NCBI RefSeq assembly: GCF_006345805.1
Contig: NC_043002.1
Location: 116,932,001 to 116,996,000 of the forward strand
Origin: Octopus sinensis
Taxonomy: Eukaryota
Reading direction: 5' to 3'
Length of the DNA: 64,000 nucleotides
Position numbers and translations under genes: made by a program. Positions 17,011 through 41,858 of the stretch are shown piece by piece; position 1 is the stretch's first letter, and every line of letters begins with the position of its first letter. Under the pieces are notes generated by a model. That model was not told the origin of the DNA. It saw nothing but the letters and a program-made list of their open reading frames with translations, and made no database searches.

Positions 17011-18051
17011 TAATTCTATATTTACCTATTTATGTATCTTAATATTTTGCTTAGGCTTTGTGAAACTAATAACCAGGTGTAGACCTCAGTACACCTATGC
17101 TTCAGAACGATGTGTTGGTCGAGGGCAGAACGGTAATAAGAAAATGAGAAAGAATTAAACGATTATCTTATGAACATATCCGAGGATCCAATGAAGCTAT
17201 AAGCTGTTACTCAGGCACTCAACTATGAATCCACTGCAGCTTATAGTAATAACAGTTCTAAGATATTCATTTAATTCCTTTATTTATGTATGTACATGTG
17301 TGTGTATTTATGTGATTGTGGTCATACACATACCGCATATCTTAATATGTTGCAATCTCTATATAACTCATTACTGTTCCATTTCTCACAGCTCTTCACA
17401 TCATCAATCTGGCTGTTAGCTTTCTACTAAATTACGTTTCATTTGGCTACTTCTTTCCTTACTTTTCCTTCTCTCTTATCTCTTTTCTCCCTTGCTCATT
17501 CAAGACATTTATCTGGTCAGTAAAATCCTAATCATTCTCTGTAAAAAGAATTTGCTAGAAAAGGCAGTACTCCCGTGTCCCATTAGCATTCAAAATCATC
17601 TAGCATAAATAAATGCCATTTTTTTTAAAGTGTACTACATAAACATAAACAAGCAATTACAAATATATTGTAACAACCGCTGAACAAAAAATAACCATGT
17701 TTTGGAGGAAATGCATAAAAGGTTTCAACAACAGAAATACAAATGATGATAAATGTATTAACCTCACATTCATATCAAGAGAAAGTTTGCAGCATACATG
17801 TATAATAAAAAAAGTGAATATGTATATGCTTGTGTGTACGTTTGTTTGTTTCTGTGTATGTGTGTGTGTGTGTGTGCGTGCGTATGTGTGAGTTTGGTGT
17901 CTGGTGTGTAAATATACATGCACTATGTATATTTATATATATGTATATATATACATATATATATATATAAGCATACATATTTATATATATGTATATACAT
18001 ATATACATACAAACACACACACACATATATATATATATACACACACATATG

Positions 18052-18082
<31 letters not shown>

Positions 18083-18086
18083 ATAG

Positions 18087-18124
<38 letters not shown>

Positions 18125-18934
18125 GTGCATACACGCAAACACACATATACACGCATATGTATAGAAAGAAAAAGAGAGAGAAAGAGAAAAAGCGGAGACA
18201 AAGTTACATTTTAGTAATTCTATTTATTGTTATATAAAATTGGCTTATCAGGTGCATGTGAACATGTTTCAGATTATTTCTTATTGTCTTATTTAGTTAA
18301 AAACACTAAAGGAAATAAACTCACCTGCGAAATAGCATTACTTCCATATTCTTTTCACAAAATGACGGTGGCGTTTCTATCCATGTCATTCACACTTCCA
18401 CCAAAATACAATAGCCTAGACCTCTTATCTGTATAATTGTCCGACTCAATGATTTTTTTTTTTGAATTTGCTTGGTACAAGACTTACCAGTCACACCTCT
18501 CATAACATATGGTCAATGGAAACTTAACAAATGATTCAATAATCAGTTAGAGTGTAAAATTATTGCTAAATATGGAATAAAGATGAATTTATATTTATGT
18601 CTGTGCAATTAATTAATTGATTGATGTGTTTGAATAACAATGAATTTAGATTTTCAGTTATTTTCTTAACATGGAACTATTTTCATGAAATGCAGAGGTA
18701 TATATTATTTAGGAATATCGAATTAAAGTTTCTAATTCTGATTTATACTTATACTGACACAAAGTTTTACTCGTTATCGTTTACGGTTCTAATGAATATT
18801 CAATATAATAGTTCATATGCTAAATAAATATGTTTTATGGCGGGATTCTTAATATAAAATTAAAGTATTTCTGTTGTTATGATATACAAATATTTGCTTA
18901 ACTGCATAAATGCATCATATATCTTCTAAATATT

Positions 18935-19026
<92 letters not shown>

Positions 19027-19159
19027 TAAATTAGAGATAAAACCACTATTAGGCAAATCAAACAATGAAAAACATAAGCCAATACATAAAATTAATTAAT
19101 CTATATTATTTTAAATATATATCAAAAGTATTAAAAGTTTAATAAAAGATAAAGAGTAA

Positions 19160-19232
19160 AACACTACGATCTTTTCATGGCTGTACAATTCGTAATAATT
19201 CGAGTTATGGTTACAGTCAATCTTCAGGTAAT
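19160..19232 (-). ncRNA. Degenerate hammerhead motif in a PLE pLTR remnant (~19022-19265)
   Basis: Minus strand: ac CTGAAGA ttgactgta...tacagccat GAAA agatc GTA gt. Confidence 0.45.
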
Positions 19233-19261
19233 TGAAATATTTATCTTAGCGAAGTTTAGCA

Positions 19262-19296
<35 letters not shown>

Positions 19297-19314
19297 CGTG
19301 TATGCATAAGATAC

Positions 19315-19395
<81 letters not shown>

Positions 19396-19523
19396 ATTGC
19401 AGCGTGGAGGACGTTTGTAAGTCACTTAAGAACACACAAAAACCGTTAGTTTCACTTCAACATTTAAATCGAATTTGTGTCAAAATATTTTCGTCGCTTT
19501 GAAACTGACAAACTTCGTGCTGC

Positions 19524-19568
19524 GTCAGTGAACAGGTCGCAGTTTCAAAGCGACGAAAATATTTTGAC
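19524..19568 (+). ncRNA. Second copy of the G3:C8 hammerhead-like motif
   Basis: gtca GTGAACA g-gtcgc agtttcaaa gcgac GAAA atattt tgac; same repeat family as 6400-6545. Confidence 0.5.
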
Positions 19569-19727
19569 ACAAATCAATTTTAAATGTTGAAGTGAAACTA
19601 ACGTTTTTCTGTGTCCTTAAATGGCTTACACATATCTTCCATGCTGCTATTGTTTTTGTTTCAGTACACGATCTCAGATCTAGTCACGTACTATGTATAT
19701 ACATCTCCGTAATACATACATACATAT

Positions 19728-19804
<77 letters not shown>

Positions 19805-19829
19805 ATTTACGTATGTATGTAAAGGTTAA

Positions 19830-19980
19830 TGTCGGTGAATCGGCAGAATCGTTACAAATTCGAACAAAATACCTTTCAGGTATTTGTTCTGGCTCTCTAA
19901 GCTCTTTTTGTGAAATCCTGCCGAGTTCAACTTCGCCTTTCAAATCTTGATGAAATGAAATATAGTACCAGTAACGTAAT
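19830..19980 (+). mobile_element. Degenerate SINE
   Basis: ggcagaatcgtta...gccgagttcaacttcgcctttca...gtaccagt; same family as 5430-5610. Confidence 0.6.
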
Positions 19981-20220
19981 ATATGCAACTCTATTTCTCA
20001 ATCGGTCATTTAAAGACCTGCACTTAAGGCGACTGTGGGAGAGTCGAGGGCATTACTTTGTCCGTTCGCAGCTACATGTGCACCTAAAAATCACTATTGA
20101 AAGGTATGGGCTACCAACTCAAAATCGATTGAGTATTGCATATATACATTAATAAAGAAATTAGACACACACACAAACACAAACACACATACATATACAC
20201 ACTCACGTACACACACATAC

Positions 20221-20318
<98 letters not shown>

Positions 20319-21788
20319 CAAAATACGTACATACATACACAGAGACATACATGCACAGGAATGAAAAAGCATAAAAGAGGAGGATAGTACTTAATACATC
20401 GTGTAAATAAATTTCCATATATTTATTTAAACTGATGTTTTGGTCGTTATTCCCCACCCTGAAATCTTTTAGGTAACTAAAATAGATTGCATTTCTTTGT
20501 ATTCTTACGTTTCTTTTATTAGTTAATCCATTTTGTTCATTGATTGATCGTAATCATAGATAATGGTACAATCCTAACATGCTCAAAATGCCACGTCATT
20601 CTTCGATAACAACCCTATTTGCAAATGGGACCAAACTTTCAAACATAAATTTATTTTGTTTTATACAGGATACGACGTTGTATTTTGTGTAGTGCAACTA
20701 TGTATGTTACCATTTGTATCTATGTATTTATAAATCTTCCTTAGTTTTCAAATATGTCGTGACAAGATGTTCAATTTGCCCTATACACATTCTGAAAAGA
20801 CTGCATATGTTGCGTGTAACTGATTTTAAATGTTCAGGTCGCTGCTGAGATATATACATACTTCTCTGCATTTTAATCATTGTGCATTGTGTATAGCTTT
20901 GATTTGTTTTTGTTTGTGAGTTATCAGCTATTTGGTTATTCATATTCTGGTGTGTGTGTGATTTACATTCTCTGTGTAGTTGTAGCTAACTATATTCCTG
21001 TTGAAGAGCCTATAGTATCTATGTTCAGTAGGAAATGACTAATGCAAGAAAAGTCTTAGCTAACAAAAATAATCATAAAAATCAAAAATAGAGCCAAATG
21101 TAAATAGATATAGAAAATACCTATCTTTAAAGTAAGACAAACATTTTCCGTGGTAAAAGCACAAGGATCTCCACAATATTTCTTATAAAGTAATATACAC
21201 CGACTCTGCACCATTCAATAATGATTCTCATAAAACGAGCCCATTAGAGCTCACATTCAACAAATGGACCCAAAATCAATTACAGTCAGACAAATGAAGA
21301 TTATCTTGTCTAATTCACTCTTGAACCTAACTATAGTGTAACTTACTACATAAAAGCTGGGTCATGACCAAATTCCTTAGTTTATATATATATGAGTGTT
21401 TGTGTGTGTATGGGTCTATATATGTGTGCGTGTATGTGTGTATAAAGAAATACATATGTCAACATTCATCTTTTAAATGTGTAAGAAATAATAGTCTCGA
21501 ATTTTCTGTCAACTGTTTCATTACGTCTGAAGTGTATTTCTTAATATAATGTAGGAGCTAACATGACATTCAGCAAGGAAAAAAAGAAGAATAAATTTTA
21601 CGATTTTAGAAATCGTGCTTAAATTCAGTTCATAATATAAGAAGATGATTTTAAACAATTGGCTGTATAAACTAGTCTGTCGCATTAAAGAATTACAATA
21701 ATATGTTAAAATAAATTGCTACGTTTTTAGTGTAGTTAAAATTGACTTGTTATTCAACTACGGCATATTTGCAAATGCCAGTATGCTA

Positions 21789-21836
<48 letters not shown>

Positions 21837-21853
21837 TATGTATATACACACAC

Positions 21854-21915
<62 letters not shown>

Positions 21916-21934
21916 ACATATACATATACGTATG

Positions 21935-21973
<39 letters not shown>

Positions 21974-22525
21974 ATTCTACAACTGGATTTTGTCACTTTC
22001 CTGACCACCATGTTTGGTCCGTAATCACTATACATCCCTTATCCTTATATATTTCTTTATTATTTTTATTCCTATTTTTATTTTTTTGCTTTTATTTTTA
22101 TTTTTATTTTTATTTCTATTTCTATTTTTACTTTATAACTTGATACATTTATATTCATTTATATTTTTTTATATTCTTTATACCCCCTTATATCTCCTTA
22201 TATCTCTTTATATCTTTATACTCTACACTTTTACATTTTTCTATACTTACACTTTTTATATATTTTTTATCCTTCGTCCTGAATTCTCGCCCCTCCATCT
22301 TTACCCCTATTTACTCTTATCACCAGGTCCCTTCACGTCTATATATTTGTTAATTTATTTACATTACTTCAACATCTAAATTCCCTCATTCTACATTGAG
22401 AGAAGAACGAGATGGACGCTTCAATTCTATGCTGCTGCCGCATTATGTCGTACGCGAATGAGAGGATTTGCATCCCCAACCAAGAATTTTTGATGTAACA
22501 CATGTCCTTGTGGAAGCTGCTTTGC

Positions 22526-22603
22526 GCGGCTGAAGAAGGCCACAGACATACATTATGCATTGTTATAAATCTGTCTAATAAAGGCCCGAAACATATGTGC
22601 CGC
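22526..22603 (+). ncRNA. Degenerate hammerhead motif in a PLE 3' remnant (~21970-22720)
   Basis: gcgg CTGAAGA aggcc...ggccc GAAAC atat GTG ccgc. Loop III is palindromic, but the site is GUG and the stem II base is mismatched, so it is probably inactive. Confidence 0.6.
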
Positions 22604-22730
22604 TGAATCCTTGGCATCATGATTTTATTTTGATCAATTTACTCCTCCACCTACACCACCAAACGGTATATACAGGTGCTTACAATTATCAAGTACTCAC
22701 CCCGATTTCTGTACTCAACTATATATATAT

Positions 22731-22784
<54 letters not shown>

Positions 22785-25700
22785 TATAAGTTTCTACGTA
22801 TCTATGGTCATTCACTCATATGAAAGTCTTAATATAGATTAAACCTACTAAGTAATTTTAATAACTGACTTAAATGTTGTTAATTTCATAAGAATTTTTA
22901 GGAAAAAATATACGAAAGCATGTGTCTCATTTTGCATGTAGACGTAATAGAAGTAAAGCAGCTGAATATGGTCTCCTAGAAGTTATTGGCTACACTGTCT
23001 GTGGTGGTGTATGATGTCGGTAGTATATATAGTGGTGGTAGTGGTATTAACAATGATACGATGGTGACGGTGATGTTGGTGGTACAAACTGTGACAATAG
23101 TTTATTAGGTGAGGTGAAATTATTGGCAATGCACGTGATTTTGGTTGGTGATGATCATGTTGGTGTCGAAAGTATAAAAACACGTAAAATGTTTGGATAT
23201 CAATCTAAAACATTGCAGTAATAGCCTTCATTTTTTTTATAATATATTGGGAACTATATTTTATTTATTTTTATATTATTATGTAGTACTTATATATTTA
23301 TTTTTATATATTAGTTATCAGAGATTGTTTTAATAAATCAGTTACAATTATCGAATTAGATCTTCGATTTTATATTTATCAATGATATATAGAAAATAAA
23401 ACATTGAAATCTTTTTATATATTTTCATCCAGTTATCAAAGATTGCTAACTATTTCAACATTTCATTCTGAAATAGTTTGCCATGTTTTGAATAAATATG
23501 CCAAAAGATTATATGTAAGTTTAAATTTAAGGTTTGCGAAGTAATTTTATATGTGACATTCTATAAAACTAATTTAGGTACTATATTTAGAGTAAAAATA
23601 CTATTCCGAAATATTTATTTCAAACGTTATTTGTTTGACAATTTTCTATTTTCTGAGTTATACAACTTTGAATCATAGCAGATATAGGGAAGGAAAAATC
23701 CCCACAGGCGAATTTTTAATAATTTCCAAGATAAATGTACATGTAACCTACTAAAGTCCAAACGGTGACTTATATTCGTACTATAAATCAATGTATGTTT
23801 TTATTATCATTAAAGAATTATTATTTATATCCTTTATATGATTTTGTTGCGAACTAAAATCGTCCAGTAATATATTTTCACGAATTGAATGAATGAAAGA
23901 TAAAAGTGAGAGACGTTGTCATATTCAATTCTAAAACATGTAATGAAAATTAATGAAATCATGAGCAATCTATAACAAAATTAGATTTGGGTGGATTTAT
24001 TTATAATGGGTATTATAATTTACATAATCGTGTTTTGGCTGATAATATAGATAATCAGCTAACCTAAAATATGTGTGCTAAAATACAGATTCTGTTATTT
24101 TGCATGTATTCTTGTAACGTGATCACTGTCAGATTAATCTGTTTCATCTGGTGTTGTAGTGTCTTTACGCTTTTGAGTTCAGTAACTATACTTAGATAAC
24201 TTATCAATGCCTGTCATTTTGTGAAATCTTTAAAAAGTTTTAAATTATATGATGTAAGTAACTATAAAATAAAATGATGAATTAGAATATGGGAAGCAAA
24301 TCCCATTATGTGTCTATATATTTAAAGACATCAAATGCAACTCGTTGAAAAGTCTGTATTTGTTTTAAAATGTTAAGCTAACATTCATGTGATTGTTATA
24401 TTTATTGCTTAATGCGTTTAAATTTTTCTTGCGATTTCAGATTCTGTCCCATACATATATGGCTTGCATCATTCAAGAATTTTCCAGTGGAGACCGAATC
24501 AAATCTGTATTCTTTGAATTTGGAAGATAGATAATATAGTGATATTCCTCTTCATTTTGTTTTTGGAAAAATAGGATAATTGAAAGAGTTGTGGTTAAAT
24601 TTACCCGCCGGCATTTCGTTTGCTTCGCTCTCGTTATCTAGGCTAGTTTATGGATAGATGCCTTGGCTCCTCTGTATGACTAATTTTGACGGTATAACGT
24701 TTTGTTTGTGAATAATAAATCACATCTACTGATTTGAGTTTCTTAGGTTATTTGTTTTGTTGTACAGCTATAATTTAGTTTAGAACTGTGTCTCTTAAAT
24801 AACTTTCTGTGAAGGGGTTGACAGGCAAATATTTGTTGTAAATAGCGCCTAAAAAAGGTGTAGCTATTTTTTAATTTTTCCTCATATGTATTTCAGTTTA
24901 TTAATGTCAGTAACTTAGGAGTATATTTGATATTATCTTAATGTCCACTGTTTTGTAGTATGGAGCACCTATTTCTCACTTTGTTTTTGAAAACTACGAG
25001 CAGTTGGCTAGATTAGCCGTTTTAATATAGATGTCTTGGAAAATTCTAGTAGAGCGCATGATGGTAATATTTCCGAGGTCGAAGTATAAAATTCAACAAC
25101 GTCAATTCATGTGAATTAGCGCTCTCTTTATTGCTAATATATATTTTTTTTTAACCAGATAATTATGGTCATTACTAATATTGTATAATACATGGAGGTT
25201 ACTAGCTTTACTAATTATATCATGGTAGTTATTTAACATTTTTGTAATCAATTAATCCCAGCTCACGCTTACAGAAATTTATTAATCTGCATTGTGGATT
25301 AGTGGTGATTAATGTATAGTTAATATCTATATTCTTCTAAGTATGTATGGTAGAGTAATCGTATTTGAATTATCCTAATTCGTTTTTAGTGAAGTAATTT
25401 CTGCTATGTATATTCATAATACACAAAACTGTAAAATATTTGGATATGTGTACACAATAAAGTCAGCATCTGGTTTTCAGGTGTTTTGTGTAATGAATTT
25501 TAAAAAAACCTTAAAGCAGAAAGTTATTTTAAGTAATTATGTTATCCGACAAAAATATTACATAGCAAAAGCTGTAACTTTCTAGATTTCGAAGAAATAT
25601 AAACCAGTAGATTATCGCATTCTTTCTACACTAAACTATTTGCGAGTTAAAAATGTACAATGTAAATTTATTACCACAATAATACGTATGAATAAATGTA

Positions 25701-26201
25701 CGTTTCGCGGTAAATCTAAAGTATAATAGAAGTACTGTTCAAGTTTAAAAGACAAATGATTTGCTAACATAAACTTTATTCTGAATCGTTACCAGTGTAC
25801 TTCCAAATATATAAATCTACTAAAATTTCTGTATGACTTCATACCATTAAGTTCTATTTTTCTATTTTGCATACAATAAAATTTGGAAAGTAAGTTAATG
25901 GGAAAACATTTCTTGCCGTTCTTTCATTGTCTCCAGAAGATAATATTGGTGATGTCAGTTTTAATGAAATACCGTAATGCACATAGTGAACTATCCTGCA
26001 TATACTCATCAGCAACAATTTGATATTTTAAGGGCAATTATCTTTAAGCATTAATTATTACTACTTTATAAGCATGAGTCTTGTTGTTTAGTAACGAATT
26101 CAGTCCTAACTGAGCTGTTCAGAAACATTCCAGTTTCTAATATCCCGTATTGTTTTATTTAAGTGATAGTGTGATTTGAGGGCATTTGGAAATGACATAG
26201 G

Positions 26202-26247
<46 letters not shown>

Positions 26248-26420
26248 CAGAAAGTACAGAAAGTACATATATATATATATATATAACAGAAAGTACAGAA
26301 ACACCCGTAGTGTGTTCTGTACTTTCTGTTGCTACAAATTCTATTAAGATTTCACTCCAATTTCATACAATTGACTTTTATTTTTCTGTTTGTGGATCTA
26401 TTCTTCTCTCTCCTCCCTGA

Positions 26421-26455
<35 letters not shown>

Positions 26456-26520
26456 AACCATGTAAGTTAAACATGCAGGCTAACACAAACACAAACTTAT
26501 ATATAGAAGTATATACATAC

Positions 26521-26665
<145 letters not shown>

Positions 26666-29268
26666 ATATTATATATATATATATATATATAATGAAATAG
26701 ATAAATATACATATAAATAGATTACAATAAAAATAAAGTCCAGGGAGTTGTTGGTAGTCTGCGTCAGCAAATATCGAATTTATTGATAAAAATACAAAGT
26801 TTTGTTTTTTAAGTTCATATACCATTAAAAATAGCGGATGAATTTTGGACAAAGTCCCTCATCGTGGAGTGTGAGAGTTTTTCTCCTTTCTTAAACTACG
26901 AGAGCATGGACAAACTGGTGAATAGCAGGAAATGACAATGAATTATATGTGCATGAAAGTAGACACAACATTTGTTTTTATATTTCTTTTATGTGAATTC
27001 ATAACAACCCCACTCTTTCCCGCAACAGTAATCCATTCTGTGGTACTCAGACTTGAATAGTAAGGCAATTTTAAATACATTCAATACACATTTTACACCT
27101 GTCTTTATATCAATAACAAAACACCAATCACCAGACCCAAATCATTATTCCAAATCACCCAAACTTTTGGTTGCATATCTGCCAATATTACACATTGCAT
27201 CACATACAAATTCTGCTGTGCTTTATAAGTTAGTTAATGAAGAAAGCATTGTCTAAATGATTGCTCCGGTAATGAACGCGTTTTCCCACACACAATAAGC
27301 CAACGCATTTCAACTGACTTGGTTAGTCCATTTACTTTTCCCCGACGTCCGGTACTTTAGGACCCTCTGGGAAATACATGGGACAACGCATCATTTTTAC
27401 CTTCGGGATATCTCCTTCGTTTGTTTCAATTTTTACTTTATTTTAATGTTCACAATGATGATCATTTTGGAATACGACTTTGTGTGAATATGCATTTCTA
27501 ATCTGCAGCCTGAGCTAGGACGAATGCAGACAGTACTATTGGCATCATGGTGACTACTATGATCACCGATCTTGCCAAAAGAAAGTCTTCTATTTTGGAC
27601 TTATCAATTACCATCTGCTTCCTTACTGCTTCGATCCTTCAATTTTACCCAAATATGTTATCTCTCGAGTTCTAGGCTTACCCTCCTTTAAGTTATCTTC
27701 TTCCCTTCGCCAACCACTTTTCAGTCCCATCGTTCCTCGACACACAACTCAACATTTAATTCTTCCTCATTCACTGTCATTCTCCAATGTGTTTTCGCTC
27801 TCATTGATTAAGAATGAGGAAAACATTTCTTGCTCCCCGAAGTGTTAAATGTATATAAAACTTAAAAGATAGTTTACCAATACATTACCAATACATATGT
27901 CAGGATCAAGTGAGCATTATTATTACTATAGATGAAATTAACGTGGTATGTTTAATATGTGTGATACATCACTTGATGAATATGCAGAAATTAAAGTCCT
28001 TATTTGCAATCAGTTGCTCTCAAGCAACGATTCGTGTATGATACTTAAGTATTAAAATAAATGGAAAATATCGGGCTTTATAATCCCGCCATAAAACAGG
28101 AATTTTTAAAACCTAGCAACTTACATAAAATCCTACATAAATAGAATCTATTCTCTACAAAAATTATCATTCTATTTATTCTAAAATTCGAGATTTTAAT
28201 ACACTTTCAATTAATGCTTACGTAAACGGAATAATGGATAACAGAATCAGTTGTACACCTGAGAAAATGTTTTACTGTGTTTAACTATGTTTGTTTATGC
28301 TTTGAATCAATTTTGGATTTTCATCAACACTTAGAGGACGATAAAATGTGCTCACGTGGAGTACAAGAACACATTTAATCGGCTGTTACTCTCTCCAAAA
28401 TTAGGAGTTGTACCAAATTTAGAAATCTATAACTGTTTCAAGATAGCCTATTTCTGTAGATTTTGCGTAGTATGTGTATGAAACTCCTGTAAAGATTGAA
28501 AACAAATTATGTTCTCTATGATATAGATATAAATTGGAGTGTGCTACATATCGAGTCATATATCAATTCATCGTAGTTGCACACTTATACAAAAATATTA
28601 AGACGTCCCATTTCTCTTCTCTCCTTCTAGAAACCAATCTACATTGCTTATTTAATGTTCTCTGCATTAATAATTATTACGTTTCCTATATTTAAAATCT
28701 GTAGTATATTTAGATAACTATTTCTATACTTTCACCGAAATTGTATTGTATACTCAACGTACATGTTTTAAAAATCAATAAATATCTTATGAAGTATTAG
28801 AATATTGATTATTGTTTAAATGCTTTTTAAACACTAACAAGTGCGATGTTGCGTGCGTGTGTGCGTGCGTTTGTGTGTCTGTGTATGGTGAACTTGTTTA
28901 GTAAATGTGTGTACTGTGAAGTTTTTAGTAAATATTCTTTCTTTCAGAAATTATTTTGTTTTAAATTAAGCCCCAAACGTTGACCCAAGTTAAGTGAAAA
29001 TGCTTTTAACATCAATCTTATATAACCTATTGTGCTCTCGTGCAAGGGTGATGAAGATATGAATAAATTACCTTAGCATTGCACAAAGAGGGTATTACAC
29101 TCTTGGGTGAGAAGTTTGACCTGTAGTAGTGCTTTCTTGTGAGTTTAACGAAAGAATGCATTACTATGGTCAAACATTTCATGGATATGGGATCGTGAAA
29201 ACGATGACGTCATTGGTGAAACGAACACCGTTTTTCTAATCAGTGGTAGAGAATGGAGAAAAACTCAC

Positions 29269-29352
29269 CTATCAATGGAACTGTTGCGGCATGAGGGACT
29301 GACTCGGCCAGCAATAGCAACAAGAGGAAAAAGGCGACGAAAATGTTCATTC
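29269..29352 (-). CDS. Duplicate alternative exon ('exon 8b') encoding a variant M2 and M2-M3 loop of the same subunit
   Basis: gttacag|GA ATG AAC...TTG ATA G|gtgagt; 84 nt, phase 1-1, open frame (G)MNIFVAFFLLLLLLAESVPHAATVPLI. Both splice sites are intact. Many 3' differences from 8a are synonymous and the single indel is one whole codon, consistent with purifying selection. Confidence 0.85.
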
Positions 29353-29392
29353 CTGTAACATAAATAAGTGGTGGAAAATGAGATTGACTCAC

Positions 29393-29479
29393 CTATTAAA
29401 GGAATGGACGAGGCCGCCCGAGGAGTGGATTCTGCCAGCAATAGCAACAAGACGAAAAAGGCGACGAAAATGTTCATTC
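29393..29479 (-). CDS. Internal coding exon ('exon 8a') of a nicotinic acetylcholine receptor-type Cys-loop subunit: M2 helix plus M2-M3 loop
   Basis: Minus strand reads ttttacag|GA ATG AAC...TTA ATA G|gtgagt; 87 nt, phase 1-1. Translates (G)MNIFVAFFVLLLLLAESTPRAASSIPLI(G/x), aligning without gaps to alpha7 exon 8 [29 protein letters not shown] (also 87 nt, phase 1-1). From memory the GMNIFVAFF M2 resembles molluscan anion-selective nAChR subunits; this needs a BLAST check. Confidence 0.9.
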
Positions 29480-30121
29480 CTGTAAAATAAACCAGATATG
29501 CATAAAACATGGAAATTGAGTGAGCGAGGGTCAGTTTTATGTTATTGGTAGGTGCTGTTTGGCTAACTTATTTTTCCGTTTTTGCCCCATCTCAATCATT
29601 TGGTTTCAATTTTCTGAGTAAATTTCTTTGATATTCACGCAGTTTCGCTTTCGGTGATGTGTCATGGTCACTGTTCAATTTAAGAAACATGAATTCTATT
29701 TTGTTTTATAACATAAGTAATTTTAAGACTAGATTTTTTTTCCTTTCATATATTTCTTAGTTTATAAGTAAATATTTAAATAATCAATCCTTAAGTGTTA
29801 ATTTAGCAATCATAGTAATTAAAAGTTTTAATATATATTGAATGCCAACAATTGTTTATTTGATATTTTTCTACTTTAATTTTCTTTTGAACAGTATAAC
29901 TCTAATTTTACGAAACATTGGCATTCGAACTTCCGTAAATGTATATTCCACTAGCCCTAATCTCATTACCATACGTGTATTAATTATTTTAATTTATAAA
30001 CAATCACACATTCATAATAAATACTTAAAAATCCTAAGTATATATATATATATATATGCATATGTGTGTATATATATGTATATATATATATATATAGACA
30101 TACATACTCACACGCACACAT

Positions 30122-30173
<52 letters not shown>

Positions 30174-30403
30174 TTATCGTTATGTCATTATCGTTATGTA
30201 ATGTAATATGCATACTAAAAAATCTAATTAGAAATATTTCAGCCGTGAGGAGAGAGAACTAGAGCAACAGCCCAGTATCAAAGCGATATTTTAATTATTT
30301 CGGTAAGTATATCACAGAAGGTGGGACATATATTAGTGTTATTAGATCACCTTAGGGATATATAGTTTCCACAGTACTGGCCGAGGTCGGGACAATGGTA
30401 TTA

Positions 30404-30447
<44 letters not shown>

Positions 30448-30724
30448 TACACATGATTACCCATTTACAGCCATTGAGTTAATGTTTTTATCTCACTTCA
30501 TATTTCTAATTAGATGTTTAGTATATTAAATAAGTTAACAATAAGTTTGTTTAATTCCATGCAAGCTGTATATGTATATATTAGCGTTTTATAGGAAAGT
30601 ACATAGCACAATTTTAGCGCACAGCGAACACAACGAATATCGGTGGTTAATGGTTTCATAAAATTTAGGATGTTTAGTATGTCTTATCACTACATCATTC
30701 TCACGATTCTTGCAGCTTACTACG

Positions 30725-31025
30725 AAAGTGCAGTTATAAGAACTCCAACACATCTTTAGTCGGAAGACCGAGAAAACTTAAAAGAGCCAATGAGCTTAAA
30801 ATCTTTATTCTTTTACTTTATACTTAAAGGACATAAAATGAAGGCGAAACAAACCTGTGTCTTGCATATAACACCCACGCATACACACACACACTCACAC
30901 CACTCACATGCACACAAAAATGCACAATATAAGAATATATACAATATATATATATTTTGTTTTTTTCGTAAACTCTCCCTATATATATATATATATATGA
31001 ATGATAATTTTCTTGCAATCACTAT
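30725..31025 (+). repeat. Source copy of a ~301-bp inverted duplication (partner 35524-35824)
   Basis: Near-identical to the reverse complement of 35524-35824; the ORF track shows the same peptides on opposite strands with one residue different. Confidence 0.95.
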
Positions 31026-32574
31026 GAAAAGTGATTATATTTCATACAATGCAACTGAATGTTTTCTGAAAAGTTTATGACTAGATGGGTTGTTTTCAAA
31101 ATTAGGTATGTTTTAAAATTACTGGAATATTTTCGTAAATGGTTGAACAAAAAAAGTAATACTTGAAATGAGTCCAATCAGGATAGCTTTAATAGATTAC
31201 ACATATGAAACAAACGTTGCAACTACTCTCCATTACATATGAGAATCAATGTATATGAATTAAAGAAAAAGACAATTCCTTTAATGAACAATCCTTAATT
31301 GACCTCGCTATTATTATGTTGTTTTTTTTTTAACTCAAACCCAGGTTACATATAGATTCAAATATTTCTGAGTGCTGAAAATATCAGGCATATAAACTTG
31401 GATTTGAATTAGCCATTTCCAGCCTCATTGATAAATATCTAAAAATATTATTGTAAATGATACGCAAATGATACGCAAGATTATTGGAAAAAAATAATGA
31501 CTACTCCATAGAACTCTACAACACACACGCAGTGTGGATACTCATATCAATACTTGAAACTCATATCAGAATAAACACGAATGTCGTTTTATCGACACTA
31601 GCAAACTCGATATGATAAAATAAATCAACAAAGATATTACATAATTATGGCTGCAACTAAGCGGTTGAAACCGGTAAGAAAACCAAAAATATGAACGTTT
31701 AAGGTCATTTATATATTGTTTAGCCATCTATCACTTTATACCTTTGTGTCCATACGTTTATATATATTTATATACACACACATGCACACACACACGCACG
31801 CACGCACACAAACACACACACAGTATTTCCTGTTTGTTCAGTGGAAGGTGCGACAGCTTCTACGCGAAGAGCATAATCAAGACTTCCAGTAATAATAAAA
31901 TGCACTTACCACAGTGCTTTGTAATATTACTGATTACTGCTCAGAGCAATTTTAAGAAAGCATTTGACAAACACAAGATAAATCAACTCATACTATTTCT
32001 GCCTATGCACGTTTCCCCATTATGGCTAATTTGTATCTTCTGCAGGGGTTGTGCATGGTGCAATTGGACCCAGTTGTACAATGTCCTACACAAGCAGTTG
32101 ATGCATTTAGTCACAATGGCAAAATGTGTGTTGGAAACAAATCGTATAAGTTGAATAACACAAACATATTTGCATTTGTATGTATGTATATATATATGTA
32201 TGTATTAGAACACAGGCACCATCACCTTCCAAACAATCTTATCTAAATCATAATATACAGAGCTCGATATAGTATGGGTTAGTGCTTCAATACTTAATGC
32301 TTCAATATACATAATGTTAATGAAATAAGTTAAATAAGTCGGAATCTATATGTATAAATGTATATATGCATGTATGAATGTATGCATGTATGCATATTTG
32401 CGCATATATAAGAGTAAATATATATTTATATATCTGTATGTACGTATGTATGTATGTATGTATGTATGTATGTATGTATTTATGTATATATGCATGTATG
32501 CATGTATGTATGAATGTATGTATGCGTATATTTATTTGGACTCTTAATAATTCTAATAATGAAATTGTTGTATA

Positions 32575-32815
32575 ATGTGCTCAGGTTCACTACAGCAAAG
32601 AAAAAAGGCATTAGGTGAATTTCAGTAAAAATGGAAGTTTTGAAGGTTGTAGCTGACAACCGATGCATGTAGTTTATTCCAAGCTTTAGCAATTCTGAGC
32701 GTGAAAAACTGTTTCCGAATGGGAGTAATGTTCATTTTTGATTGTGTATGTCCACGAGTGTTTGACATATGGAATTCAAAACGGCGCCAAGATTGTTGTT
32801 GGAAAGGTGGTGGAT
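32575..32815 (-). mobile_element. CR1/L2-group LINE 3' end
   Basis: SNTRGH....IRKQFFTLRIAKAWNKLHASVVS is the typical CR1/L2 ORF2 terminus. Confidence 0.75.
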
Positions 32816-33752
32816 AATATATATATATACAAATAAAAATATATATATACACATTTATATGCATACATACATTCACACACAAACATGTTTAGTTTAGTTA
32901 TAATTACGATTTTACATTAATCTGGTGGTTACTCTATACTTTTGTAGAGTACAAGTCTTTTATAGAGTACAAGAATATTGTTGACAGGGAATCCCAAGTT
33001 TCAGCCAGTTAAACAATCGTCGGAGAGACAGAGAGAGAGAGAGAGAGTAGATATGTTCATTGATTAAAATTATTATCATCAAGGTTTGGTCTATTTCTTT
33101 CACTTCAAAATTCCTCTGAAAATTGTCAGATGAAGGAAACGTGACGAGTCTTGTAAGAAAAATATATAAATAAATATGACCTTATCTTGACCGACGGAGT
33201 GAACTGTTACACTCGAAATTTTACTACATGTCGTCAGTTGTTCAAACGTAAGTATCACAGACTCCTTCTGTCTGAACAACTGATTAAATGTTGGAAACAA
33301 TTCATATCGGAGTAACTAAACTATCGCATTCTACGTTTCAGTCTTTCTTTTCCTATTATATTTATAATAGATTCACTAATACAATCACCAATATAAATGC
33401 AAACACTCCTACTTATGTACACATTAATATAGATGCATATAGGCTATTGTGTAGCTTAGGAGCTATTGCCAAATTTTCATATTTGACACAGAAAAAAATC
33501 TCTGGAATTCAAATCTGAATGGGTGACATGAAAATTCTTTAAACTCACTGTAATTTATTTAGAGAAAAGAAACAAACTCTCTTGGAAAATGCAGCAGAGA
33601 CTTGTTTGTACTTTATGCACGCTGGCCTTCAATATTTGCAAGCATCTTTATTCCACCAACTCCGATATTTGCATGTTTCAGTGTTCCACCCATTATATAT
33701 ATTGTTATATAATTTACTCTACGCTCTTTTCAATTCTCGTATTCTTCTACAT

Positions 33753-33994
33753 CAGTGACTCTCAAACGGGGTCTATATAGTCACTGGAACTCCATATAAG
33801 ATTTTGTTGTTAAAATTTATGCGCAAGAAATTTGTTAGTATTCAACAATATACAAAATATTTTAACAAGTTTCTTTATACGATTCCTAATATCTGATTAT
33901 AAATATGTAATAGGATTTTTTAAATATCGAATGTTTATGAGGGTCCATTTGAGTAAAATAAGAAGCAAATGGGTCCACATGTTGAGAACAAGTG
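33753..33994. mobile_element. hAT/Charlie-type MITE
   Basis: Imperfect TIRs cagtgactctcaa / ttgagaacaagtg, with 8-bp flanks ttctacat / ttttagat (6 of 8 identical; hAT-like target site duplication). Confidence 0.55.
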
Positions 33995-34079
33995 TTTTAG
34001 ATAACCTTCACTGCAATATGTGTGTGTGTAATTGTGTGTGTATGTGTGTATATATACACACGCATACACATACACATTC

Positions 34080-34500
34080 TTCATGTCCTCATAATGTCCC
34101 ATGCCTACAACTGCCGGTGATCATGGAGGTCCAAAACCTTTATTCCCCATCCACTGCTCCACACTGGAGTTGGTCATTCTGTCGCCATATTATTTCTCTC
34201 TGCTTTCCCTGGCTGACTCCTCCTTTATCTTTACCATTTGTCATTAAGTTTTCAAACTCTGGGGTTATTTTTTATATGATATCCAATAAAGTAAGTCTGT
34301 TACCTCCTTGTGTATAAAACATTTCTGTTAGTTACTGCTTGTCTAACGACATCAGTGTTGTCACTGTGTGTACATAGGGCACCAATATTGTTCATAGGAA
34401 CCACATCTCCGCAACGTCGTTAAGCCAGTTATGTTCTGGGTTGCCACACATATGTAAGGCGGTTCTGTGTATATTCCCCGGAGTCTTTTCTTACTCTTAC
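34080..34500 (-). mobile_element. Degenerate RTE-clade LINE 3' end
   Basis: Minus strand reads AEMWFL....P and FENLMTNGK.KG..SQGKQRE, typical of the RTE ORF end. Confidence 0.65.
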
Positions 34501-35020
34501 TGGTTAGATCTTTATTTTAAAATACTTTCTTGTTGATCTCCCAAAATAAACAGTTTTCCTTTTCATTACTTTATTCCTTTTTTTTCTTTTTGATATTTTA
34601 CTAATTTAATCTACTAATTGCTTTGAAATCTTCAAATCTATCGAAATCGTTAAAGCTCGTAAGCCCTTTCATTTAGATATAATTCTAAATTGAAAGGAGC
34701 TAACGAATAAGCAGCAAAAATCAGAATTGGAAATGTAATAGGATAAGAAAATATAAAAGTACGATAGGAGGATCTTATGAACAGACAAGTTTTTATTATA
34801 TAGTGACAAAATTTAACGATCGGTTGAAAATCTAACAGGTATGATATGTATACAGATAAGTGGACAAAACATCAACAATATCCGTTATGCGGACGTCAAT
34901 GTGCTCATAGCAAAAACCAGAGGAATATTTACCAACATTAGTTAATTAAATTAAAGATGAAAGAGAAAAATGGAAGAAACATAAGTATGCATGATTTACA
35001 TATAGGTATATGTATATGTT

Positions 35021-35057
<37 letters not shown>

Positions 35058-35490
35058 GTGTGTATGTAAGCATATACTTATTTATATATATACACATACA
35101 TGTGTAGATGAATGTATAGGTGTGCGTGTATGCAGGAATGTACATGTGTGTGGGTGACTTTGTGTGTGTTGGTATTATATAAAAATAACAGCAGCTAATA
35201 AGCTCAAACATACAACCTCAGAATATCTCTAACATTATAAACCCCAATACTTGAGTTGTTATCAGCCGGGACAAAAAAACTCGGCTAGACTGCTGTTTTC
35301 GTATTTCTTCATATACTAAATCTGCCATCTCTACCCTATATACTGATTTCTCTATCAGAAAAGGCATAAAAATAAACCCTATACAATTTACGATATTTAC
35401 ATTGATATTTACATTCATGCAACACACACACAGACACATATATATACACACGCGTATGTATATATGTATATATAATCACACACACACACA

Positions 35491-35523
<33 letters not shown>

Positions 35524-35531
<8 letters not shown>

Positions 35532-35819
35532 TGCAAGAAAATTATCATTCATATATATATATATATATAGGGAGAGTTTACGAAAAAAACAAAATATATA
35601 TATATTGTATATATTCTTATATTGTGCATTTTTGTGTGCATGTGAGTGGTATGAGTGTGTGTGTGTATGCGTGGGTGTTATATGCAAGACACAGGTTTGT
35701 TTCGCCTTCATTTTATGTCCTTTAAGTATAAAGTAAAAGAATAAAGATTTTAAGCTCATTGGCTCTTTTAAGTTTTCTCGGTCTTCCGACTAAAGATGTG
35801 TTGGAGTTCTTATAACTGC

Positions 35820-35824
<5 letters not shown>
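35524..35824 (-). repeat. Inverted copy of 30725-31025 embedded in (TA)n
   Basis: Bounded on both sides by (TA)n tracts. Confidence 0.95.
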
Positions 35825-35883
<59 letters not shown>

Positions 35884-36036
35884 GAATATTGTTGGGCATT
35901 TTGATGAGATACACTCAAGACGAAACTGATTTATCTCGAGTTGTACTTATGCACCTTGTTAGTATGTATGTCCCTGGGAAGTTCATTTGACAAAGCATTA
36001 TATCTGCATACATATAAAATTTGCCCAATTTTCTGT

Positions 36037-36242
36037 GCGTTTACCCTACGGAACTCTTTTAAGCGTTTACCCTACGGGACTCTTTTGAGCGTTTACCCTA
36101 CGGGACTCTTTTGAGCGTTTACCCTACGGGACTCTTTTGAGCGTTTACCTTACGGGACTCTTTTGAGCGTTTACCCTACGGGACTCTTTTGAGCGTTTAC
36201 CCTACGGGACTCTTTTGAGCGTTTACCCTACAGGACTCTTTG
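36037..36242. repeat. 26-bp minisatellite, about 8 copies
   Basis: Unit gcgtttaccctacgggactcttttga starts at 36037, 36063, 36089, 36115, 36141, 36167, 36193 and 36219; there are no spacers. Confidence 0.95.
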
Positions 36243-37028
36243 TCACAGAAAGGTTGTCTAGTGTTTACAACACCTATTAATGGATAAAGCTCTAGACATA
36301 TTATGTACCTTAGTGGTAAACATACTTGGAGACATGATCGCATACATTTCCTGTATACAGATGTTATCTCTTTCTGCTTATTGTTCACTATATAAACTGT
36401 AAATTCAGAAACTGCTTTATTTTAGGGAGCACTTTGGTGACACATTGCTAAGGTAAGATTACTTATGATATGCCTTGTAAGAATACGTATGAAAAATGTG
36501 ACAGTGTATAATTCATACACACCCATCTCATTTACACACCTATAAGCGCGCGTGTACGCGTGTATGTGCATGAGTGTGCGTGTGTGTGTTTAAGGTTATT
36601 CGCTTAAAGTAATCTCATGAATGAAATCGAAGTTAGTGTTGGTGAGACTCAATACTATTAGGAGACTCGCAATTCTTACAGATCTCATTTTGATCGGGTT
36701 ATGAAGCTGTCGTATATGCGTGCATGTGCTTGATGGGAGAGGCGTGGGGATATTCCACCTAAGTGTGTGTGTGTGTGAGTGTGTATAAATGTGTAAATGT
36801 GTGTGTACTTGTTTGTATTTGTGCTTGTTTCTCGCCACTTCAAAACCAGCTTTGATTTACTTAAGTCCCTGTAACTGATTTGCGACATCAAAGATAAAAT
36901 AAAGCACCGTTTGGTTGACTAAAACATTCAAGATGGCACCCTAACATAGTCGAAGACCAGTGAGAAAGACAAGTAAAGAAATAAAGAATATACTATGTAC
37001 AAATTACGGATATATATATATATATACA

Positions 37029-37385
37029 TATTGGGCTGGCAACTAAGTTCCCGCCGTTTTTATAAATTTTCGGGATTTACTGCGTTTTTAAATTTTGGAA
37101 TCTATTTACTTCGAGTATTCTATTTTTGAATGATTTTGGCATCTATTTTTCTTTCTTTCCAGTTAATTTGAGTTATTTTTTGTTTATTTTCAGATCTTTA
37201 AAATGAGTGTCAAATTAAGGAAAACGAGCATTTCGACACCTCCTTCTTTTTGCTTTTAATCAAGGTTCTAAGGCCACAAAAGCTGATCGCGACATTTGTG
37301 TTGTGTATGGAGAGGGTGCCATAGCTGAAAGAACCGCTCGTGATTGCTATGCCAAGTTCAAAAATGGAAATTTTGACTTCAAAGT
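37029..37385 (+). mobile_element. Left end of a mariner (Tc1/mariner) transposon with truncated transposase
   Basis: TA followed by the TIR-like ttgggctggcaactaagttc, then a frameshifted HTH region ENEHFRHLLLFAFNQGSKATKA.RDICVVYGEGAIAERTARD.YAKFKNGNFD. Confidence 0.85.
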
Positions 37386-37877
37386 CTGGTCTCAAATGCG
37401 CTGTGCTACTGATAATCGTTCCATATCTCTAGATTAGTTCGTGATTTAATTATGCATCTAATTGAAGCATATTAAATAAAAGCACAGGTTTAAATGGATG
37501 TGAAAACTATCTTATTTCATTAAAAAACTACTATTAGATCAAATATTTATATTATATTCTTTAAATTGTTGAATTCTTAAAAAATAATTCCACATTCAGT
37601 GGGAACCGTAGGATTGGAAGGTAAACGAACCATAGAAATAAAAGACTTCCTATTCACTCTGTAAACCTAAGTGGTCAGAAGAAACCCACACATCCAAATA
37701 TTGAAACGGCAATACTTGCAGTAATAAAACATGATACTAAGTACCTTTGGTGATGAGCCCGAGTGACATGTAACCTGATGATATAAGATTCACTATATGC
37801 TGCAGCTGATATAGGTTTGCTTCAGAAATACCTATTCATGTATTTGTATAAATATGGGTGTGTGGATGTATATAACG

Positions 37878-37979
<102 letters not shown>

Positions 37980-38034
37980 CTTTCCCCATGCCTATTGGAG
38001 TAAATTCCCTTTATTCAACGGTTTTTTCCATAGC

Positions 38035-38111
38035 GTTGTCTTAATAACTGATGAGATGCCAAAGCAAACTTCAGCCCCGGCATCCGAAACTCTGAGTTTT
38101 ATTATGACAAC
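38035..38111 (+). ncRNA. Type I minimal hammerhead ribozyme in the PLE 5' pLTR
   Basis: Stem I GTTGTC-t-TAATAA/TTATTA-t-GACAAC; core CTGATGA; stem II GATGCC/GGCATC; CGAAA; near-palindromic stem III ACTC-T-GAGT; cleavage triplet GUU. Confidence 0.8.
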
Positions 38112-41025
38112 CAACTAATTGTCACATATATTTACAGATAAATTCTCTATTTTACATAATATCGAGGTCTCATTCATTCTTTTTTTGTCATATCATTATT
38201 ATTAATAAATTACCTCCCATATACCACAGCTTTTTTTCTAGAAGCATATACAGCTTGTTTTGAAAACATTCCCTTAAAATCGGTTGAGGACTCTGTCCTG
38301 CAGAAGAATTTAATATGGATGTCATCAGTATCGATTATTCTATGAGAATCATACCTATATTATCCAGGGAACTATACTCTAAGTAACTTTTGGAGAAAAC
38401 TACAGACCTTATTAAGTGTATGAGATGGAAAGCCAACATGGAAAAGGTTACTACAGAGAAAATATTTTAGGGAATAAAATAAAAGAAATTACCTCTTAAA
38501 ATCAAGGTCTTAGAAGACTTCGAAAGGGACCTACTGAATCTTATAAACAAAATGAAATTTCGTAATTCTTTTAACACTTTCCAACAGAAACTGAAAAATG
38601 ACATCAAATACATAAAAAGTTCCAAAAAAAAAACAACGGCACTTTTTTCTGATAAAACCAAGAACTTATACCTTGTAAAAAAAAACACATACTCACCACT
38701 TCTACATAACAACATTATTAATAATTACACTAAAGCTGGACCACAAGTTTATAACGTCATTAATAAAGAAGCTAGCATCATCGCTGCTAGGCTTAAATTA
38801 GATAAAAAAATAGAGGTCCTCCCAGAAAGAGGCCTTTGTAACTATTAAAGACCATAAAAAGAACTTCCTATCTAATCCTAAATGTAGACTTATTAACCCA
38901 TCAAATGAGAAATTGGTATTATTAGTAAGGAATTTTAAGGAAAAATTAATGCTAAAGTCAGAAATGCTACTAGGTTAGTACAATGGTCTAAAAGTATAGA
39001 AGTGGTTGACTGGTTTAAAGCCATTAGGAATAAAAATAAAGGGAGATTTACACAATTTGATATTGTAGATTTCTATGCTTCTGTCTCTAAAGAACTGCTC
39101 GATAAAGCCCCCATCTTCGCAAGCGAATTTATAGAAATTTTACACAAGATAAGGACATAATCTTCCATGCTAGAAAGACTTTACTTTTCGGTGAGAACGC
39201 AGAGTGGATTAAGACAACCGATACAGCGGGTGCCTTCGAAATGAGCATGGGATCATATGATGGCGCAGGCATATGCGATCTCTTTGGACTATTCCTACTC
39301 GATACGTTGGGTAAAACTTTTCCTGGTATATATTTTGCCATGTACAAAGATGATGCTCTAGCTTCAACCACAAACATCAATGGGCCAGCGCAAGCTCGGT
39401 TTAGGAAGGACATTATCCAAATGATGAAAACATTCAATCTTAGCAAAACAATAGATGCCAACCTCATGATTGTCAATTTCCTATATGTATCTTTAGGTTT
39501 AAATAAGAATATTTACAAATCCTATAGAAAGTCCAACGATAGGCTTAGCTATATTAATGTAGGTTCCTACCATCCCCCCATAGTATTTAAGAATTTAGTT
39601 AAAACACTAGTAAGAGAATTTCTAGCCCCTCCTTCAATATAAACATTTTTAATAGTGTTGCCCCAATAAATAATAAAGCTCTAAAAGATAGTGGTTTTAG
39701 CGAGGAAATAACCTATACACCTGTCATTAGTCCAGTAACAAAAAAAAGGAAAAATAGGAATGGGAAAATTATCTGGTTCACACCACCTTACTCATCAGAA
39801 GTGACCTTTAATATAGGTAGATATTTCTCATCACTTATAGATAGGCATTTCCCAATCAATCATAATCATAGAACGCTCTTTAATAGGCACAACTTAAAAT
39901 TAACTTTAGTTCTACTACTAACTTTAAAAATATAATTGCACACAACTAACAAAAACGACAAAAGGAAGCAAACTGTTCTTGCAGAGTTAAAAATTTGTAC
40001 CCGCTAAATGGAACTTGTATGACCGAGGCCATCATTTATGAAGCCACCGTAGATTCTACAACCACTAAGGACATAGTTTCGTCAAAGATATATGTGGGTG
40101 TCAAAGAGGGAAATTTTAAAGCCAGGTTTAACAATCACACCTTATGTTTTAGACACTGGGATTAAAGGGAAACAACCAAATTATCCAGTTATATATGGTC
40201 CTTAAAAAAAAGGTGTCAGCTATAAGAGACACTGGAATATCTTGGCCAAGTGTAAAGTGTAAAGTGCAGTTTTTCCGATATGGAAACATGGTTCATCTGG
40301 AAGAGTTCTTTAGACCCCGCTACATGTCTAAATTCAAGAACTGAAATTTTGGGTCATGTCCATATATGACAAAACATTTGCTACGTTTTTGGAACCCCCA
40401 AGATCACAGATAGAACCTGCTTTTTATACTATGTCCACGTACAAGCATTTTATATGTTTTAACATCTTTTATATTATTTCTTATATATATTTTATTGCTT
40501 TATACATTTTCTGTATATTGTTTACACCCTTTATAATTATGTAACTTATACGCGTGTAGTATATAACTAATGTGTATGTGCGTGCATGTATACATGTGTA
40601 CGAATTATTGTATATATACATATATATATATATATACGAGTGCAAGACTGTACCTGTTGTAATTGTCTCCCTCCTTCATACATATATCTATGTATATACT
40701 TTTATATATATGCAGGTGTAGATGTGTTTGACAGACAGGAGGGTGTATTTGTGTATATACATATATAACTCATTTATATATTCAAGTTTTGCGGCGAATG
40801 GGAATGCTTTACCGTTTATGCTTTTTTTTGCATATATGTTTTTATTTGTATATACGTCTTTCCACGTATGTATATGCACATACGTATGAACTACATTTTG
40901 TATATCTGCATATGTATGTATGTGTGCGTGTAGAGATGTGTATATGAGTATAGTGATGCCTGCATGGGTATATGTGCCAATTGGAGTAATTTTCCTTTAT
41001 TCAACGGTTTTTTCTTCATAGCGTT

Positions 41026-41098
41026 TGTCTTAATAACTGATGAGATGCCAAAGCAAACTTCAGCCCCGGCATCCGAAACTCTGTGTTTTATTATGACA
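41026..41098 (+). ncRNA. Hammerhead ribozyme motif, pLTR copy 2
   Basis: Same core and stems I and II as 38035-38111; loop III is TCTGT. Confidence 0.75.
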
Positions 41099-41125
41099 CC
41101 CCAAAAATTGTCAATCGTATCATAC

Positions 41126-41230
<105 letters not shown>

Positions 41231-41648: not shown

Positions 41649-41723
41649 TTGTCTTAATAACTGATGAGATGCCAAAGCAAACTTCAGCCCCGGCATCCGA
41701 AACTCTGTGTTTTATTATGACAA
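41649..41723 (+). ncRNA. Hammerhead ribozyme motif, pLTR copy 3
   Basis: Same core and stems as the copy at 41026-41098. Confidence 0.75.

Positions 41724-41771: not shown

Positions 41772-41858
<87 letters not shown>

Follow-up and report, generated by a model that had tools for sequence, protein, structure and literature searches.

Organisation of the locus

The window, that is, the whole stretch of 64,000 nucleotides analysed here, holds two adjacent exons of a nicotinic acetylcholine receptor (nAChR) gene of Octopus sinensis, both of which code for the pore helix M2. The rest of the window is taken up by portions of the two long introns on either side of the pair (Table 1). The pair was pointed out in an earlier sequence-only reading, from which the labels 8a and 8b are taken; it had placed the two exons, their phase and their splice sites correctly and had omitted that they lie on the minus strand. 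The other coding exons of the gene were placed on contig C6 by searching the assembly with a full-length relative. As the ligand domain and M1 are found together on one 452-nt exon, the numbering as exons 7, 8 and 9 is a borrowed one. Exon 8 of alpha7 presumably has the same boundaries as the octopus M2 exons.

Table 1. Features of the M2 exon pair and its gene. Positions are those of the window unless a contig is named.
Feature	Position	Strand	Remarks
Upstream 452-nt exon	G000:C6:117,090,856-117,090,405	-	ligand domain and M1; outside the window, 129 kb from the pair
Intron before 8a (portion)	29480..64000	-	part of the 128,925-nt intron reaching the upstream 452-nt exon
Alternative M2 exon 8a	29393..29479	-	87 nt, phase 1-1, TTACAG acceptor, GTGAGT donor
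Intron between 8a and 8b	29353..29392	-	40 nt, GTGAGT...TTACAG
Alternative M2 exon 8b	29269..29352	-	84 nt, phase 1-1, TTACAG acceptor, GTGAGT donor
Intron after 8b (portion)	1..29268	-	part of the 34,416-nt intron reaching the M3 exon
M3 exon	starts G000:C6:116,926,852	-	outside the window, 34 kb from the pair

Exon 8a codes for M2 from position 4' to the M2-M3 loop. It has Val at 13' and a loop ending in TPRAASSIPLI, and is the form typical of the family. Exon 8b has Leu at 13' and a loop ending in VPHAATVPLI, which is one residue shorter. The two peptides thus differ at six positions, namely V13'L, T22'V, R24'H, the deletion of one residue, a Ser to Thr and an Ile to Val change, and they share Val at 9' and Glu at 20' (the prime numbering being taken from an alignment to human alpha4). 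With an HMM built on 60 M2 exons of the family, 8a scored 67.0 bits and 8b 52.1 bits. The same HMM gave no third copy across the 186-kb region of the gene (C6:116,921,500-117,107,999), where the next best score was 5.2 bits. The GC content of the exons is 0.48 as against 0.31 for the window, and Tandem Repeats Finder returned no arrays at 29100-29700.

The tandem pair of M2 exons in this gene is real. Both window peptides match RefSeq proteins of O. sinensis and O. bimaculoides exactly, the latter species having models for both exons. Further, a fraction of 0.97 of the words of the stretch, the 40-nt intron included, is present in six of the 21 sequencing runs listed, which come from four organisms.

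The introns carry a few other features. Six long plus-strand open reading frames (window 7198-7800, 11931-12254, 38483-38845, 39106-39639, 45779-46474 and 60593-61021) resemble remnants of LINE or Penelope-type retroelements on a reading of their sequences, with a Pfam match in none of the six. There is also an inverted repeat, in which the same non-coding stretch occurs on opposite strands at about 30760-31077 and 35418-35789, some 4.5 kb apart. Its copies, which have an identical translation over about 90 residues and lie 1.3 kb upstream of 8a in the transcript sense, could form double-stranded RNA.

Identity of the gene

The protein P0131 of the gene's cluster contains both Cys-loop domains (PF02931 with 217.8 bits and PF02932 with 115.8 bits). 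The Cys loop and the YACC motif, with the vicinal cysteines of loop C, are present in the sequence, and the best PDB matches are nAChR alpha subunits. By these signatures, the gene encodes a Cys-loop nicotinic alpha subunit. Its models (proteins P0122-P0132) vary near the N-terminus by an optional stretch of 35 residues and a 5-residue acceptor shift, which adds further isoforms.

It had been proposed that the preceding exon be checked for a Pro-Ala motif, and the motif is there: the exon terminates in PPESPAKLQL/G, which places Pro-Ala-Lys (PAK) at -2' to 0' before M2. This motif defines the AChRB family according to bioRxiv 2025.04.02.646353. The position of the gene in phylogenetic trees points the same way. 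Two quick trees, of 74 and 28 rows, were computed with the M2 exon left out and assessed by SH-aLRT with no bootstrap. The gene is placed there beside Lymnaea type F and the relatives of the latter in bivalves and gastropods (SH-aLRT 99). This group falls in a clade with the Lymnaea B and F types and the flatworm ACC, apart from the cation-type subunits (SH-aLRT 99). The type-B branch, to which AChRB1 belongs, is distinct from the type-F branch of the octopus gene. These trees left out the third octopus PAK gene and insect alpha6, and the Dimorphilus row in one of them kept one of its two M2 copies. By both motif and tree, the gene is therefore assigned to the AChRB or spiralian anion-selective nAChR family, and the receptor is probably inhibitory and chloride-passing. 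Its nearest named relative is the Lymnaea nAChR subunit type F (ABA60385, P0280), which is 61.9% identical. Chloride conduction is a property of Lymnaea type B and may extend to other Lymnaea types.

There are three PAK genes on the chromosome-scale contigs of the assembly, at C1:68.7 Mb, C1:178.7 Mb and on C6. From accession numbers and the tree, the first of these appears to be AChRB1, so that the gene in the window is probably octopus AChRB2 or AChRB3 and distinct from the characterised AChRB1. The latter belongs to the same family and has the PAK motif and a near-identical M2; it is, however, a paralog on C1 with 49.5% identity and a single M2 exon (one copy in the 51 kb scanned). The third PAK gene (G000:C1:178,731,611-178,731,697; loci L011 and L018) has a single 84-nt M2 exon with Leu13'. 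The shorter loop is thus also used constitutively in the octopus.

Either-or use of the two exons

The earlier reading had proposed that the two exons are used in a mutually exclusive manner, and both protein models and transcript contigs support this. The protein cluster of the gene has 26 members, of which 15 are listed and 12 of those are full-length, with automated RefSeq models among them. Exon 8a is found in seven of these 12, 8b in three and neither exon in two; none has both. All three forms occur in O. sinensis as well as in O. bimaculoides, where it must be kept in mind that the RefSeq isoforms are automated models and that those of O. sinensis may derive from the same assembly.

Transcript evidence came from contigs of three runs, X13, X10 and X4 (three organisms), over 29130-29729. 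They are likely to be RNA, as their loose ends run from exon to exon across 34 and 129 kb. X13 has two separate contigs, one with 8a (depth 11.5) and one with 8b (depth 6.7), and the last 23 letters of both are identical and match the beginning of the M3 exon. In X10, 8b is the only form (depth 41.7) and is spliced to the upstream exon and to the M3 exon; one of the 8b contigs continues unbranched for 213 nt into the next exons. Among the pieces listed for X4, 8b has a depth of 254 and 8a of 305-378, and 8b is spliced to the next exon. An 8a-8b joint was seen in no contig of X13, X10 or X4 (for X4, among the pieces listed), though contigs drop rare forms, and the depth in the middle of the intron (29370-29389) is zero in all three runs. 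The junction from the upstream exon to 8a is known from protein models alone, while 8b is seen spliced to both flanks in X10.

Two side observations were made in these runs. At window position 29417, a minor X4 contig (depth 51 against 305) is without one base of a three-base run in 8a, which shifts the frame and may be an error, an allele or something else. In X10 and X4, low-depth contigs (8.5 and 10) extend 8b into the downstream intron over 29130-29268. Coverage is absent from the other two introns, the 40-nt one and the one before 8a, and the contigs are possibly partly spliced RNA.

Thus, the two exons are homologous neighbours in the same phase whose splice sites are undamaged, as expected of tandem-duplicated mutually exclusive exons, and each is spliced to the same flanking exons. 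That mRNAs carry 8a or 8b and not both is supported, and transcripts routinely containing the two exons together were seen neither in the three contig runs nor in the 12 full-length models listed. A minor 8a-8b form may have been missed by the contigs. Since rare forms are lost from contigs, whose depth also reflects expression poorly, the 8b-only X10 suggests regulation and no more.

One could also suppose that the duplication is an artefact of assembly, that 8b is a dead copy, or that the two exons are normally joined. Two M2 exons in a row do occur in a scallop model and in two gene models from other species. The octopus copies, however, are too diverged for a haplotype duplicate, and neither has a damaged splice site or an interrupted frame. 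Moreover, the two are found in spliced contigs from three organisms with no letter differences listed in the exons, except for the single-base gap of the minor X4 contig. Along with the presence of the stretch in the six listed runs, this makes such an explanation highly improbable.

How exclusion may work

Exons 8a and 8b together amount to 171 nt and keep the frame, so nonsense-mediated decay would be unable to remove an mRNA with both. Counted from the donor of 8a, three predicted motifs resembling branch points lie at 14, 28 and 32 nt, all of them within the 40-nt intron. In the portion of PMC5740500 concerned with human exons, a donor-to-branch-point distance of 50 nt is given as the limit for steric interference. 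The distance here, 32 nt at most from predicted branch points, is below this human-derived limit of about 50 nt. Within 40 nt, the spliceosome would thus not have the room to bind the donor of 8a and the branch point of 8b at once, and an either-or choice would be enforced in this way. Steric exclusion is the best reading of the mechanism. The choice between 8a and 8b may in turn be regulated by tissue or stage.

Exclusion through docking sites and selectors, as in Dscam, was also considered. A search of C6:116,921,500-117,097,999 gave no clear docking site against only four shuffles per query. The best duplexes had energies of -36.5, -29.8 and -29.3 kcal/mol, against shuffles of -36.8 to -43.6, -24.2 to -28.0 and -26.0 to -31.2, respectively. 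Only the element after 8a beats all four of its shuffles, by 1.8 and as an interrupted helix. With no duplex standing clearly apart from these few shuffles, this candidate was rejected. Similarly, the local fold of the region has a z of -0.86, and 21 of 100 shuffles fold as well.

The assembly also holds compact nAChR paralogs on unplaced contigs, namely C6303 (L005), C12601 (L007, L008), C9587 (L006), C11675 (L014), C7757 (L013) and C9990 (L035). In C12601 and C6303, introns of 27, 29 and 31 nt interrupt the gene at the M2 exon boundaries, and Pro-Ser-Lys takes the place of Pro-Ala-Lys. The match on C6303, which looks intronless, was considered as a retrocopy and rejected since these 27-31-nt introns are present. 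Microsatellites are absent from the five of these loci that were checked, whereas the window has about 7.7 per 3 kb. A median intron of 27 nt is given for dicyemids in the relevant part of PMC6543705, and the compact contigs are probably contamination from a dicyemid parasite. On account of their compact, microsatellite-free sequence and 27-31-nt introns, C6303 and C12601 were set aside as probable parasite sequence. If introns of this size were those of the octopus, the steric argument would weaken.

Sequence pattern of the two copies

The likeness of the two copies is unevenly spread. Over their first 46 nt (window 29434-29479 and 29307-29352), 45 of 46 bases are shared, and the sole change is the one that causes V13'L. 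Silent differences are absent from this block (0/13), whereas they are found in seven of the nine shared codons of the 3' half (Fisher p = 0.0002, with the boundary chosen after looking). The latter figure argues that the copies are old. Past the two donors, the introns resemble each other as well at +7 to +33, with a score reached by 22 of 5000 shuffles and by none of 230 other GTRAG sites. The likeness of the 46-nt block could come from gene conversion or from a shared splicing element.

Exon 8b is conserved beyond the genus. Four Logan proteins that are 92.3-92.5% identical to the O. sinensis protein all carry the identical 8b peptide. These four form a cluster that is sister to Octopus plus Argonauta, the Argonauta protein being 96.3% identical overall. 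When short proteins were searched with the 8b region, nine fragments came up, none of them identical to 8a or 8b.

Origin of the pair

The sequence-only reading had proposed the switch for a cephalopod, and it is not confined to that group. Alternative M2 exons were found in three of the 30 clusters looked up, which are those of the octopus gene, a Lingula gene and a scallop gene. In Lingula anatina (XP_013418082-87), one of four members differs from the rest, at eight positions that all lie within the M2 exon. The scallop gene has both forms in four species, with five differences between them that are again confined to the M2 exon; one model carries both exons (P0236) and two carry neither. 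Further, one gene model each of Pinctada imbricata and Dimorphilus gyrociliatus has two M2 exons in a row. All of these database models concern the same exon and the same anion clade as in the octopus. They nonetheless sit on other paralog branches, one scallop model joins the two exons, and Pinctada and Dimorphilus are each represented by one model. A single clade of all the genes with dual M2 exons was rejected (p-AU 7.6e-8), a test which speaks only to clade membership and for which the group was named after the first tree had been seen.

The best-known parallel is that of insect nAChR alpha6, in which exons 8a, 8b and 8c are tandem copies of an exon with most of TM2 and are used one at a time, with strong conservation even at silent sites (for 8b, within Drosophila), as given in the relevant sections of PMC1919356, PMC2064938 and PMC6393475. 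The insect gene is, however, of the cation type and alpha7-like and has two or three copies, whereas the octopus gene is of the PAK anion type and has two copies 40 nt apart, one of which is a codon shorter. Orthology with the alpha6 system was rejected, as the octopus gene has PAK and not GEK and falls in the anion clade. An origin separate from that of insect alpha6, which the earlier reading had raised for the case of an anion-type receptor, is supported by the placement of the gene apart from the cation-type subunits.

In the proposed scenario, a tandem duplication of the M2 exon together with its acceptor and about 30 nt past its donor would have left two copies 40 nt apart. Alternative M2 exons were found in none of the 12 bivalve and gastropod clusters of the gene's own type-F branch and none of the nine type-B clusters, as far as their incomplete isoform lists go, which favours a cephalopod origin. 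The copies of the scallop gene share residues specific to their branch, with five differences between them and 13 to either octopus exon, so the scallop pair arose within its own branch. It is fairly likely, therefore, that the octopus exon was duplicated within the cephalopod lineage, independently of the pairs seen in the brachiopod, the bivalves and the annelid and of insect alpha6.

Alternatively, the pair may be ancestral to the spiralian anion-selective clade, as an 87-nt exon with Val13' and an 84-nt exon with Leu13', both of which were kept in octopus and Lingula while most paralogs lost one. Octopus 8b and the second exon of Lingula (isoform X2) agree in Leu13', in a length of 27 residues and in Val before Pro-Leu-Ile, a likeness that fits an older common origin, and the single 84-nt Leu13' exon of the third octopus PAK gene is in line with it. 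Repeated loss of alternative exons is described for insect alpha6 in the relevant part of PMC1919356, and the AU test is compatible with an ancestral pair lost many times. Leu13' is common, though, being found in 13 of 40 distinct M2 sequences, and the internal likeness of the scallop pair tells against inheritance from a common pair. The 46-nt block and the similar intron sequence after the donors of octopus 8a and 8b do so too, as do the absence of a pair from the own-branch and type-B clusters and the single copy in AChRB1. An ancestral pair thus appears rather unlikely. Either-or splicing holds in this case as well; the history alone would differ. Val9', which the earlier reading had singled out in both exons, was dropped as a special feature: it is a family trait, and of the 40 distinct M2 sequences of the PAK/PSK type, 20 have it, including those of AChRB1 and Lymnaea type B.

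A different kind of exon choice was noticed in the ortholog of the clam Ruditapes philippinarum (P0087, P0203 and P0247; isoforms X1-X3). Its isoforms are the same outside residues 138-286, where there are 31 and 51 differences, and represent three alternative exons that each code for the ligand domain and M1. In gastropods, the same branch comprises three separate genes.

Likely functional effect

In vertebrate receptors, the pore-facing 13' position, 22' and the M2-M3 loop shape gating and desensitisation, and changes at 13' and 22' are known to alter gating, as with V266M of the muscle beta subunit and V287L/M of neuronal beta2. In the octopus gene, the selectivity motif is on a constant exon and Glu20' is present in both forms; hence, 8a and 8b should both pass anions. 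The switch would accordingly leave anion selectivity alone and act, by way of positions 13' and 22' and the M2-M3 loop, on gating and desensitisation, likeliest in heteropentamers with AChRB1. A measurable kinetic difference of this selectivity-neutral kind is somewhat more probable than its absence. The M2-less form, in which no pore helix would be present, may serve as an off-switch or be noise.

The two isoforms might, on the other hand, be spliced as described and behave alike, with the duplicate kept by the ordinary constraints on an M2 helix and without physiological effect. The changes are conservative, and each state is the sole form somewhere in the family (Leu13' in Lineus and the 27-residue exon in the third octopus gene). 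Even for insect alpha6, the difference between isoforms "remains elusive", in the words of a passage of PMC6393475. Against this, 8b keeps all six differences across lineages that are 7.5% apart in the whole protein, and the silent differences of the 3' half mark the copies as old. The use of 8a and 8b also differs among samples, and the vertebrate changes at 13' and 22' speak for an effect. Equal behaviour is therefore the less probable outcome, although it retains a fair share of weight beside kinetic tuning.

Significance

Taken as a whole, the reading of the locus as a spiralian Pro-Ala-Lys alpha-type subunit gene with tandem M2 exons of probable cephalopod origin, with an either-or use that would be sterically enforced and a probable effect on channel kinetics, is held with good confidence, the origin and the kinetic effect being its less certain parts. 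The type of mechanism itself is textbook. The exon pair is annotated by pipelines and apparently undescribed in papers. The earlier reading knew of no description in cephalopods, and this stands for the literature, though both isoforms and the exon-less form are already present among the automated RefSeq models. A literature search that had subscription journals and bioRxiv supplements outside its reach gave no account of alternative M2 exons in nAChRs of molluscs or other spiralians, and word searches of PMC6896357, PMC13174522 and two bioRxiv preprints gave no passage on such exons. In bioRxiv 2025.04.02.646353, supplements aside, "splic" and "exon" have no match.

The same preprint reports that inhibition in the octopus optic lobe has acetylcholine as its transmitter, by way of the AChRB family. 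AChRB1 is described there as an acetylcholine-gated chloride channel, while AChRB2 and AChRB3 gave no current as homomers, which leaves two of the three members functionally orphan. A broader reading, offered only tentatively and thought unlikely in full, is that the M2 exon is a hotspot of duplication in spiralian acetylcholine-gated chloride channels, duplicated convergently at least four times besides insect alpha6. The octopus choice between 8a, 8b and no exon would then be a switch under cell-type control by which the kinetics of cholinergic inhibition are set, and the 46-nt block would be kept identical by gene conversion or a common splicing element, with pores that differ only at 13'. 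If this were true, the silence of AChRB2/3 in oocytes could reflect the splice form or the partner used.

Anyone cloning the gene should expect three forms. That one and the same exon has been duplicated repeatedly, both in insects and in several spiralian paralogs, makes a clean case in which to study convergent alternative splicing in ion channels. For the octopus itself, the exon pair is a natural two-variant experiment on how 13', 22' and the length of the M2-M3 loop tune an anion-selective nicotinic channel.
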